Below are positions 44,482 to 46,591 of a stretch of 64,000 bases of DNA, piece after piece. Origin of the DNA: Escherichia phage JacquesWildberger_Bas92. Position numbers and translations under genes: made by a program. Under the pieces are notes generated by a model that was not told where the DNA came from, did not search any database, and saw nothing but the letters and a program-made list of their open reading frames with translations. Location: sequence record PQ850610.1. One strand, written 5' to 3'. How positions within the stretch are numbered: position 1 is the first letter of the stretch; every line of letters starts with the position of its first letter.

Positions 44482-46512
44482 TTAACCTCTATTCAATGAA
44501 CATTTAGGAGAATTACAATAAACTTGATTCATAGAACCAAGCGTACAACTTTCAGCATCGCGCCACGGAATCTGCTTAAAACACCCTGAGCAGTAGCCGA
44601 GGGTTGACCACATTGCTTTGGTGAAGTCAGTGCTTCGGTTTCCGTCGAAGCTGACAACAGTTTTTCGGAGAGCTGTTCGTGATTCAGGAAACACACCTGC
44701 TTTCTCAGCAGGTTCCTCCTTTTTTGGCTTAGTTGAGATTGCAAAAATACTGTTGCTACGTTTCTCAACATAAGCATCAACAACATCCTCCAGAGTAATG
44801 CCTGTCTGTTTCGCTGAGGAAGGTAATATAGTCATACGACCAATCATATCTTCAGTTACACGTAAAGCAAATTCAGGACGACGGGAGTTTGTTGTATCTG
44901 TTGCTTTAATCCAGACATAACCATCTTTGATCGTAGCATTAGATACTTTCTTCTTTATATCTACAGCGCAGACTTTACAGATATCTTCACCACGAAGACG
45001 ACTGAGTTCATCATCAAACTCGTTCTCTGTTTTAACTTCACCACAGATTTCACAAACACCAATAGGAGTTTCCTCCTCTTCTTCATCTTTAGGCTTAGTC
45101 AAACCTTCCAGACATTCAGGGTGCCAGTAGCATTGATATGCGAAGACTGCTTTAGGTGCATCCTTCCAATCAATGTGTTTATCACAACCGCCACAATCAC
45201 CATGAGAATGTGCTTCCCAGAATTTACGAGTGATAGTAACGCCATTCTTGTTGACGAAACTATCATTCATATCAAAAGGGATATCATCATCAAAGTCAGC
45301 AGTAGTTGACTCAGGCTCCTTTTTCTCCAGAGATGGGTCAACAAAACGACCTGCTGTGATCACTAAACGAACCATAGCATTAACTTCGGAGATACAGGAT
45401 ACTGTCCCACGGTAAACAATTTTAGGGTCTTTCAGGGCATCCTGATAAGCCTTAATGTCTACGTTATGAACATCACCTTCGATATACTCTTGAGATTTCT
45501 CATCGTAGATATAACCAATCATCTTACCACGAGAAGGAACAGCACCAGCAGTTGCATAAGGGACAAACTCATGTGGTGTGATCTCCACAGTCATGTCGCG
45601 GCGAATGTCAATGTTTCGATCGCTTGCGATTTTGTTTTGACTTACCACTGCGTTTCTTCGACGAACGTCTGCCGCTGTCACTCCCGGCTTCGTGTCGTAA
45701 GGATTGCTTGTACTGCTTTTTGAGGAACTTTGATAGTTGCTTTGGCTGTAGTTGTTCGAGTAGTAATTGCCCCAACGATTGATTACCGTAAAAACCGGAA
45801 GCTCGTGGGCGACCTCTTCAACTAGAGTCATGCTGTTGTTTGACACATCAAAGATGTATTCTGTACCAACTTTACATTCAAAGTGCTCATCAATGCGATT
45901 CTTGTGAGACCTAGAACGCTTCAGAATCCACATCAACATATCTTCTTCAGAAGCACCAAACCAATCTCTGTTACAACGTGCAAGATGGAAAGGACGCTCT
46001 TCATTACGGATGATATGAAGACGATTATCAGAAGCATCATGCCAGATTAAGGTGAAAGCACCATCCAGCTTTTGAATAGTCTCTGCTGCACCAATAGTGT
46101 TAATAGAGTGGCAGATGTTTTCACTGTCTACCTCGAAGTTTTTACTGTCAGGTAACAGGTCTTGGTTCATCAAGGTTCCGTTATGAACCAGAGTGATGTT
46201 ACCGTGTTGGAAAGGATGGGCGTTCTTGGCGTTAACTGCACCTTTCGTTGCATGACGGCTGTGACCAACAATCCATGAAGGTGCTACAGTGTAAGCTGTT
46301 TCACCAGTGGTGTGCTTCTTGTACTCATCTTGAAGGATGAATGCGAAAGAAGGAAGTGCCTCTTTATAAGTGAAGACTTCTTTAGTGCTTTTACGCTGAC
46401 CAAAGATACCAGAGGAGTGCTGTCCTCGGAATACTCCAGCATAAAAGAGTTGGTTAAATATATCTAAATCAGTGCTTGACAGATTACCGCCAGCTAATAC
46501 GATGCCACAAAT
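44482..46512 (-). CDS. class-II (Ntn) glutamine amidotransferase fused to a Cys-rich C-terminal domain; probable ATT start
   Basis: Frame continues upstream of the track start to ...AGGTGG-N8-ATT-TGT-GGC-ATC...; product would begin M-CGIVLAGG, matching the MCGI N-terminus of class-II amidotransferases; in-frame TAG two codons upstream. Confidence 0.6.
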   Translation of the reverse strand: MCGIVLAGGNLSSTDLDIFNQLFYAGVFRGQHSSGIFGQRKSTKEVFTYKEALPSFAFILQDEYKKHTTGETAYTVAPSWIVGHSRHATKGAVNAKNAHPFQHGNITLVHNGTLMNQDLLPDSKNFEVDSENICHSINTIGAAETIQKLDGAFTLIWHDASDNRLHIIRNEERPFHLARCNRDWFGASEEDMLMWILKRSRSHKNRIDEHFECKVGTEYIFDVSNNSMTLVEEVAHELPVFTVINRWGNYYSNNYSQSNYQSSSKSSTSNPYDTKPGVTAADVRRRNAVVSQNKIASDRNIDIRRDMTVEITPHEFVPYATAGAVPSRGKMIGYIYDEKSQEYIEGDVHNVDIKAYQDALKDPKIVYRGTVSCISEVNAMVRLVITAGRFVDPSLEKKEPESTTADFDDDIPFDMNDSFVNKNGVTITRKFWEAHSHGDCGGCDKHIDWKDAPKAVFAYQCYWHPECLEGLTKPKDEEEEETPIGVCEICGEVKTENEFDDELSRLRGEDICKVCAVDIKKKVSNATIKDGYVWIKATDTTNSRRPEFALRVTEDMIGRMTILPSSAKQTGITLEDVVDAYVEKRSNSIFAISTKPKKEEPAEKAGVFPESRTALRKTVVSFDGNRSTDFTKAMWSTLGYCSGCFKQIPWRDAESCTLGSMNQVYCNSPKCSLNRG

Positions 46513-46591
46513 TTTCTAATCCACCTGAAGGGTAAACCCTTTCATCTAATTAACCTTTAAATTGTGCCCCTTCGTCAGAGGCACCCATTGA

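Follow-up and report, generated by a model that had tools for sequence, protein, structure and literature searches.

Where does translation begin in a gene whose product needs a cysteine as its first residue, when none of the usual start codons stands in front of that cysteine? The question is raised by a gene on the minus strand of Escherichia phage JacquesWildberger_Bas92 (sequence record PQ850610.1), from which we analysed a stretch of 64,000 nucleotides (nt), here called the window. The window represents a Kuravirus-type podophage of Escherichia coli (Gordonclarkvirinae) and is 99.7–99.8% identical to Escherichia phages LAMP and ManiMatter_Bas94. In a program-made list of open reading frames (ORFs), the gene occupies 44482..46173 (-), with a TTG start (46171..46173) and a product of 563 amino acids. 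The same frame is open 5' of this ORF up to a TAG at 46518-46516 and encodes K-I-CGIVLAGGNLSSTDLDIFNQLFYAGVFRGQHSSGIF there. As judged from the sequence, translation most probably starts at an ATT (46510..46512, -) directly 5' of the cysteine codon TGT (46507..46509, -), giving Met-Cys and then Cys1, and this is the best-supported explanation of the locus. We regard the account as a whole, an amidotransferase gene initiated at AUU together with the mechanism proposed below, as very probable.

The reading frame and its start

Read from ATT, the full coding sequence (CDS) spans 44482..46512 (-), comprises 676 codons plus TAA and encodes an amidotransferase-domain protein homologous to phiEco32 gp83. 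The gene lies in an early cluster of the phage together with amidoligase, COOH-NH2 ligase and ATP-grasp genes. As judged by Pfam matches, sequence motifs and predicted fold, the N-terminal ~245 residues (residues 2 to ~245; 45778..46509, -) are a class II, or N-terminal nucleophile (Ntn), glutamine amidotransferase domain, in keeping with the N-terminus that the first-pass annotation had recognised in the open frame. Pfam GATase_6 was matched with 56.7 bits (cutoff 27) and GATase_7 with 30 bits (cutoff 25), and residues 2-518 of the full protein aligned to positions 2-498 of the profile PHROG 4736. The motifs FRGQHSSG, HSRHATKG, VHNG and EVDSE align to GlmS and PurF, where they correspond to GlmS Arg26, Arg73/Thr76, Asn98-Gly99 and Asp123. 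In an alignment of 64 homologs, C2 (the nucleophile, residue 2 before Met removal), R29, R86, T89, N111, G112 and D129 are invariant, and 95 of 120 representatives of homolog clusters begin with MC (about 25 begin otherwise). The AlphaFold model had a mean predicted local distance difference test score (pLDDT) of 86, with values mostly above 90 in the N-terminal domain. All of the top 50 Foldseek matches to this model were GlmS, GFAT, PurF, AsnB/ASNS or EgtC (E down to 2e-12), the best structural match being the isolated glutaminase domain of GlmS (1xff, TM score 0.70). With EgtC among the fold matches, activity as a gamma-glutamyl hydrolase seems no less possible than amide transfer.

The protein thus shares with GlmS, PurF, AsnB and the Ntn hydrolase EgtC the fold and the catalytic set, with Cys expected to come first in the mature enzyme. 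Unlike GlmS, PurF and AsnB it has no sugar-isomerase, phosphoribosyltransferase or synthetase domain; instead, its C-terminal ~430 residues (window 44485-45700, -; residues ~280-676), which are matched by no Pfam family, are predicted to form beta-rich domains with repeated Cys4 modules (pLDDT mostly above 90). These modules follow the pattern W..C..C...IPW..A..C, and C440, C443, C467, C487, C490, C512, C515, C641, C644, C666 and C671 are near-invariant.

The 113 codons that lie 5' of the listed TTG are conserved at the protein level down to ~33% identity, with invariant catalytic residues. The TTG itself sits in the middle of the Ntn fold, within the oxyanion-hole motif VHNGTLMNQ, so that a product clipped there would be left with half of the fold and no nucleophile. 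Around the beginning of the domain the minus strand reads ...TAG ATG AAA GGG TTT ACC CTT CAG GTG GAT TAG AAA ATT TGT GGC ATC GTA.... The coordinates of the ATT directly 5' of TGT were confirmed, as was a Shine-Dalgarno (SD) sequence, AGGTGG (46521..46526, -), separated from ATT by 8 nt (ATTAGAAA). An in-frame TAG does lie upstream, as the first-pass annotation had said; it is not adjacent to the ATT, since one AAA codon stands between them. The sequence also bears out that no in-frame ATG, GTG or TTG between this TAG and the Cys codon could place Cys at position 2.

We expressed SD strength as the duplex energy with the 3' tail of the 16S rRNA. The ATT reached -7.2 kcal/mol, compared to -4.5 for a GTG at 46524, -3.8 for the ATG of a short upstream ORF (uORF) and -2.9 for the TTG at 46173, which is the start picked by automatic gene callers. 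The ATT is the only candidate start in the window with a real SD. The uORF (46516..46545, -) is in frame with the enzyme and has nine codons (MKGFTLQVD-stop); its ATG lies at 46545-46543, and it spans both the SD and a hairpin described below. It should be mentioned that ATT followed by TGT automatically creates an out-of-frame TTG at 46510-46508 (-), 2 nt downstream, which opens an 8-codon ORF (MWHRISWR-stop) and could act as a competing decoy start.

The ATT is a stable character of these phages and not a product of chance. A 76-nt start region was found at 96–100% identity in all 96 related phage records, and ATT was present in each of the 14 related records or contigs in which the region was read directly, including the most divergent ones, Bas89 and SU7. 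Six of six metagenome contigs read TAGAAAATT, recovered with a search pattern that left the stop, the AAA and the ATT (9 bases) free. Within LAMP, an ATT start is used by 1 of 95 annotated genes, namely this one. LAMP gp85 (54699-55319; window ~48309-48312, -) is annotated with an ATC start one codon 5' of the GTG used by Bas94; this ATC is preceded by a poor SD and probably reflects a choice made in annotation, not another non-canonical start.

The ATT start call itself is not new. A 2031-nt CDS starting at this codon is annotated in GenBank for LAMP, Bas94, Bas89 and SU10, and in RefSeq for phiEco32 (phi32_83). The gene is clipped at downstream codons in Paul (MN045231), KBNP1711 (NC_023593, RefSeq), SU7 (MZ342906) and Aeromonas phage BUCT695 (NC_070977, RefSeq), and among the related records listed, most of the annotated ones have no CDS over the start region. 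The close relatives appear in a large protein collection as the clipped 563-residue cluster P0001 with 211 member sequences (P-numbers denote clusters of homologous proteins, L-numbers homologous loci or their leaders). Extended starts that add residues were seen in P0011, P0017, P0023, P0024, P0035 and P0043, among others. Most public records and automatic calls thus clip or mis-extend the gene and lose the catalytic Cys, and the prediction of function suffers systematically as a result, in a phage gene cluster that is widespread. We found no paper that discusses or tests this ATT start, in a search that did not extend to the papers on the phiEco32 genome and transcription, and the SU10 supplement contained no matching terms. 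Beyond the start call, the present analysis contributes the extreme conservation of the leader, the repeated occurrence of non-ATG starts within the family and a hairpin associated with ATT.

Start codons and leaders across the family

The position of the ATT is the start-codon position of the homologs. More distant homologs (L009-L013, L015, L016 and L049-L054) have ATG-TGT at exactly the place of ATT-TGT, while TTG occupies it in L033, L058, L059, L060 and L195, ATC in L056, and ATT in BUCT695, L032, L034, L055, L057, L152, L181, L187, L190 and L191. A census of 79 IMG/VR homologs collected by protein similarity gave 67 loci with ATG (68 with the atypical L170, which reads ATG-TGC-TGT), 10 with ATT and one with TTG. 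Five of the 10 ATT loci belong to Gordonclarkvirinae; the other five (L152, L181, L187, L190 and L191) are environmental, with 30–39% identity, and in each of them the upstream frame is closed within 5–11 codons, the SD is good and a canonical in-frame start is lacking. Pattern scans of IMG/VR (SD-spacer-Cys and SD-spacer-ATT-Cys) returned only the five known Gordonclarkvirinae contigs, besides 12 and 73 chance matches without an amidotransferase. The rare AUU initiation proposed in the first-pass annotation is thus supported by the homology of the position, by the SD and by the conserved coding of the 113 upstream codons.

When the N-terminal domain was placed in a neighbour-joining tree, lineages with ATT, ATC, TTG and ATG were intermingled within a clade of at least 49% identity, and all outgroups have ATG. 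L016 (ATG) is sister to BUCT695 (ATT) and L010 (ATG) to L033 (TTG), and L009 (ATG) lies beside L032 (ATT). L016 carries the 5' half of the leader (AATAGATGAAAGGA), whose GAAAGGA serves as SD at a distance of 7 nt from the ATG. In the ATT leaders, the bases matching this GAAAGGA make up the 5' side of the hairpin stem, and another SD comes after them. The interleaved tree and the L016 leader indicate that start codon and leader state have switched several times. In L058 an HNH endonuclease gene (182-592) immediately precedes the amidotransferase gene, which has a TTG start and a leader of different origin in place of the usual one, and in phage YF01 (OQ025076) an HNH endonuclease is annotated under the match to the region, next to the genes for amidoligase and amidotransferase or between them. 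The arrangement in these sequences points to homing-endonuclease traffic at the amidoligase/amidotransferase junction.

The 56 nt around the start do not vary within Gordonclarkvirinae. The leader is more conserved than the gene it precedes, and far above either flanking gene. In a 3.4-kb alignment of six phages, in which 57% of the columns are invariant, the leader and initiation region form the longest invariant run, 56 nt (46505..46560, -), whereas the next-longest is 21 nt. BUCT695 (Grimontviridae), which infects Aeromonas, is 91% identical in the leader versus 59% in the first 600 nt of the CDS, and the corresponding values for L032 and L033 are 85–87% versus 69%. An Rfam scan of the leader gave nothing near any family threshold, and a sigma-70 and terminator scan gave nothing at the leader. 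A promoter at this place was considered and rejected: the phiEco32 gp36 element TAATGTATA has five exact matches in the window, none of them near the leader, whose closest similarity to the element has three mismatches. In L009-L011, L015, L016, L032, L033, L048 and L049 a motif TTTAAATGT(A/T) occurs 5' of the SD region and contains the AATGTA core of the gp36 element, making a gene-proximal promoter possible in these relatives, as judged by the motif. Its counterpart in the window (~46550-46562), TTTAAAGGT, has three mismatches to the 9-mer.

The ATT leaders have a further feature in common. In the window a hairpin of 5 base pairs, AAGGG-TTTA-CCCTT (46528..46541, -), ends 1 nt 5' of the SD, at position -16 from ATT, and neither this hairpin nor the leader motifs recur elsewhere in the window. 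The homologous leaders retain the stem AAGGG/CCCTT but differ in the loop (TTTA, TTAA, CTTG). Stems with compensatory changes occupy the same place in L034 (ACAAGGC/GCCTTGT) and L057 (ACGGGG/CCCCGT), and the helix reappears in the RNAalifold consensus, where both partners differ in two of its pairs. L055 has the stem GGCA/TGCC. Four of the five new ATT leaders (not L187), although unrelated in sequence, also have a hairpin abutting the SD, with its 3' end at -14 to -16 from ATT (GCCT/AGGC, GAACCT/AGGTTC, AATGC/GCATT and GAGGTC/GACCTC). Eight different stem sequences are thus found at one position across the ATT leaders.

For a comparison with the other start codons, 99 leaders were clustered at 70% identity into 62 clusters, and a hairpin was scored if it had at least 4 Watson-Crick pairs, at least 2 of them G-C, a loop of 3–8 nt and its 3' end at -17..-13. 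It was present in 8 of 10 ATT/ATC clusters, in 1 of 48 ATG clusters and in none of the 4 separate TTG clusters (Fisher one-sided p = 2e-7, an optimistic value, as the -17..-13 window was set after the data had been seen and the ATT lineages share ancestry). Shuffling of the region -50..-9 gave a mean of 0.37 in 10 and a maximum of 3 in 1000 trials. These results show that the hairpin is associated with ATT, alongside the sequence features, the conservation and the family assignment described above. The SD was also stronger in the ATT/ATC leaders than in the ATG leaders (median -8.5 versus -6.4 kcal/mol; Mann-Whitney p = 0.007). Two other foldings were dropped. In the minimum free energy structure GGUUUACC pairs with GGUGGAUU and would thereby hide the SD, but this pairing is disrupted in BUCT695; an SD-to-AUU hairpin (GGYGGAUU/AAUUUGU) in the folds of BUCT695 and L034 is rich in G-U pairs and unsupported.

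Several neighbouring features may be recorded here. Between the upstream amidoligase gene (stop at 46592) and the leader, a GC-rich, terminator-like hairpin is predicted at 46564..46584 (-). Its stem shows compensatory differences between genera, GTGCC..GGCAC versus GCGC..GCGC in ECBP2/SU7-type phages. The terminator scan did not call it, a proper T-run being absent, and from its sequence it could serve to end transcription, to direct processing or to stabilise the transcript. A DNA polymerase-like CDS of LAMP (MG673519, 36462-38574; about window 29450-31570) is annotated as joined from two pieces, which could reflect an intron, an intein or a frameshift. The window contains a single tRNA gene, for tRNA-Arg(TCT), at 54030-54104 (-).

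Weighing the ATT start against other explanations

A number of observations weigh against the ATT start or against parts of the account built on it. The SD of the ATT is only average for the genome, ranking 36th among 95 phage genes, and the idea that it is exceptionally strong in this phage was therefore rejected. Upstream there is an ATG in the same frame, and L032 and L033 have no stop codon between it and the enzyme. Proteomics of SU10 found the protein (9 peptides) at a listed 63.8 kDa, which is the mass of the clipped 563-residue model, a result that is uninformative on the N-terminus. With regard to the hairpin, the caution that attaches to the p-value has to be counted too; its consensus energy is weak (-4 kcal/mol, RNAalifold), it is absent from the non-ATG leaders L187 and L056 and from four of the five TTG leaders, and the folding energies of most leaders are unremarkable (z-scores -0.98 to +0.6; 121-nt and 49-nt leaders). 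Finally, the parts of the mechanism that concern regulation and initiation factor 3 (IF3) are entirely inferential.

Among the other explanations, coupled re-initiation survives best, although we consider it improbable. Translation of the uORF, from the AUG at 46545 to the UAG at 46516, would melt the hairpin and free the SD, and the ribosomes would then re-initiate at AUU. The AUU would remain the start, but its use would depend on uORF translation and not on de novo binding of the 30S subunit. The layout resembles that of coupled genes, as the uORF contains the SD and ends 3 nt before ATT. An ATG just 5' of the hairpin combined with a stop near the SD or ATT recurs in BUCT695, L057, L190 and L034; the stop of L057 is a TGA inside the SD, and the upstream ATGs of L190 and L034 are in other frames. 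A stop triplet directly after the SD is also common (GGAGGATAG in L152, L181 and L190; GGAGGTTAG in L055), and further examples in ATT leaders are GAGGATAA and AGGTGA. However, the ATG of the uORF has a poor SD (-3.8 kcal/mol), L152, L181 and L191 keep the hairpin-SD-ATT build without any upstream ATG, and no termination takes place in L032 and L033, where TAT replaces the stop.

The same two loci bear on a second alternative, namely that translation starts at the ATG at 46545, passes the UAG at 46518-46516 by partial readthrough, and that autocatalytic removal of MKGFTLQVD-X-KI exposes Cys1. The uORF is in frame with the enzyme, and P0023/L032 and P0024/L033 encode an open extension, MKG(L/F)(A/T)LQVDY(KI/SL)-CGIV, with 12 codons before the Cys, at 2501-2536 of either locus. 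This extension matches MKGFTLQVD followed by TAG AAA ATT, so that the uORF of the window is homologous to it, with TAT (Tyr) in place of TAG. Removal of a propeptide is known in class II amidotransferases, since Bacillus subtilis PurF loses one of 11 residues. The first-pass annotation had stated that such enzymes need Cys as residue 1 after Met removal; Cys is indeed needed as residue 1, whereas a position directly after Met is not strictly required. In this phage the propeptide route is closed by the TAG at 46518-46516, which interrupts the frame between the canonical start and the Cys, and not by principle. The phage extension resembles the PurF propeptide in the 12-codon open form of L032 and L033, and differs from it in the window, where it is cut by TAG and behaves as an RNA element (covariation of the stem, loss of the ATG in L034). 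Judged by the open frame, an extended precursor is possible in L032 and L033 themselves.

For the window we find readthrough very unlikely. The tRNA-Arg(TCT) is the only tRNA encoded, hence there is no suppressor; TAG is an ordinary stop that ends 9 of 95 LAMP genes; and the ATG of the uORF lacks a good SD. L034 has an extra in-frame TAG and no in-frame ATG, and L057 has a different peptide and a TGA, yet the hairpin is kept in both. In L033 the codon before the Cys is a canonical TTG, and the TAG has become fixed both in Gordonclarkvirinae and in BUCT695, lineages that have diverged from each other. The uORF is not conserved in all ATT leaders. Since its peptide is not conserved, the upstream ATG is missing in some leaders, the SD of the ATG is poor and a suppressor tRNA is lacking, we treat the uORF as a probable by-product of the RNA element, or at most as a lineage-specific accessory.

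A third alternative holds that the N-terminal domain is not translated, the real product being the 563 residues from the TTG at 46173 and the upstream frame a decaying remnant. This is the default call in many records (Paul; cluster P0001 with its 211 members), and the SU10 paper lists 63.8 kDa. That figure equals the computed 63,784 Da of the database entry and is most likely not a measured mass. The protein-level conservation of the 113 upstream codons with their invariant catalytic residues, the position of the TTG in mid-fold within VHNGTLMNQ and its SD of only -2.9 kcal/mol make this reading highly implausible. Lastly, a base-call error or a strain-specific mutation of ATG, from which ATT differs by one base, can practically be discarded, as the start region is shared by 96 independently sequenced phage genomes and ATT is read in six metagenome contigs and in unrelated lineages.

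Probable initiation at AUU and what it may mean

For initiation at ATT we propose the following course of events. The 30S subunit would bind the AGGUGG located 8 nt 5' of the codon, and the initiator tRNA would read the AUU at 46512-46510 as formylmethionine. An AUU start is decoded by the initiator tRNA, and Met is removed before Cys. Deformylation and Met removal, as expected from what is known of the family, would then expose the nucleophile Cys1, so that the mature protein would begin CGIVLAGG... and its N-terminal peptide would be CGIVLAGGNLSSTDLDIFNQLFYAGVFR. The requirement for the nucleophile at residue 1 fixes the start position, so that the start codon itself is the only codon-level way to tune initiation. 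The ATT lineages appear to share one build, consisting of a hairpin that ends at the SD, an SD somewhat stronger than average and a distance of ~8 nt to ATT. AUU may make expression low or conditional, through discrimination of IF3 against non-canonical starts, and hairpin and SD may be co-adapted so that a weak start can function, perhaps because the SD stays accessible or the bound 30S subunit is stabilised.

As a non-canonical start, AUU is discriminated against by IF3, and in E. coli it is known for infC and pcnB only (PMC5499595). In view of infC biology, the link to initiation-factor status suggested in the first-pass annotation is plausible for the phage gene. In a reporter series it gives about 1–2% of the output of AUG, and it is a poor competitor at low temperature, when nutrients are limiting and in the presence of guanosine tetraphosphate (ppGpp); context can nevertheless permit high output, as for infC (PMC5499595). 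The phage gene is like infC in that AUU is conserved among orthologs, and the infC arrangement of GGAGG, 8 nt and ATT has a spacing shared by several of the phage leaders. Unlike the phage enzyme, which is no translation factor, infC is autoregulated since its product is IF3, and it has no hairpin abutting the SD. The pcnB gene, encoding poly(A) polymerase I, also has an AUU start, and its low expression is thought to be beneficial (PMC5499595); it differs from the phage gene in having no hairpin 5' of the SD, a spacing of 4 nt and a residue 2 that is not constrained to be catalytic. As with the phage gene, the rare start was first mis-annotated at a downstream canonical codon in ebpA of Enterococcus faecalis, where ATT attenuates expression (PMC4447247), and was first mis-annotated downstream in sigR of Streptomyces, whose GTC start is repressed by IF3 (PMC5472188). 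The ebpA and sigR starts were verified experimentally, whereas that of the phage gene is predicted from sequence, and they are single genes, not a family with recurrent switching.

A more far-reaching proposal is that hairpin, SD, 8-nt spacer and AUU together act as a module dedicated to translational control, which at least eight lineages with unrelated stems would have kept or evolved anew, and in which AUU would be efficient but conditional on the translational state of the host. We put this forward tentatively and consider it possible but rather doubtful. If it holds, an early phage mRNA would sense host physiology (IF3 occupancy, temperature, ppGpp, nutrient status) or time its own expression, with the start codon as the sole tunable element and the catalytic Cys fixing the start position. 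More generally, a family in which ATG, TTG, ATC and ATT have repeatedly replaced one another at an immovable position constitutes a natural comparative series on the conditions that allow a non-canonical start codon to work and on the reasons for its selection. With members of the group that infect E. coli K-12 available from the BASEL collection, this is directly testable.

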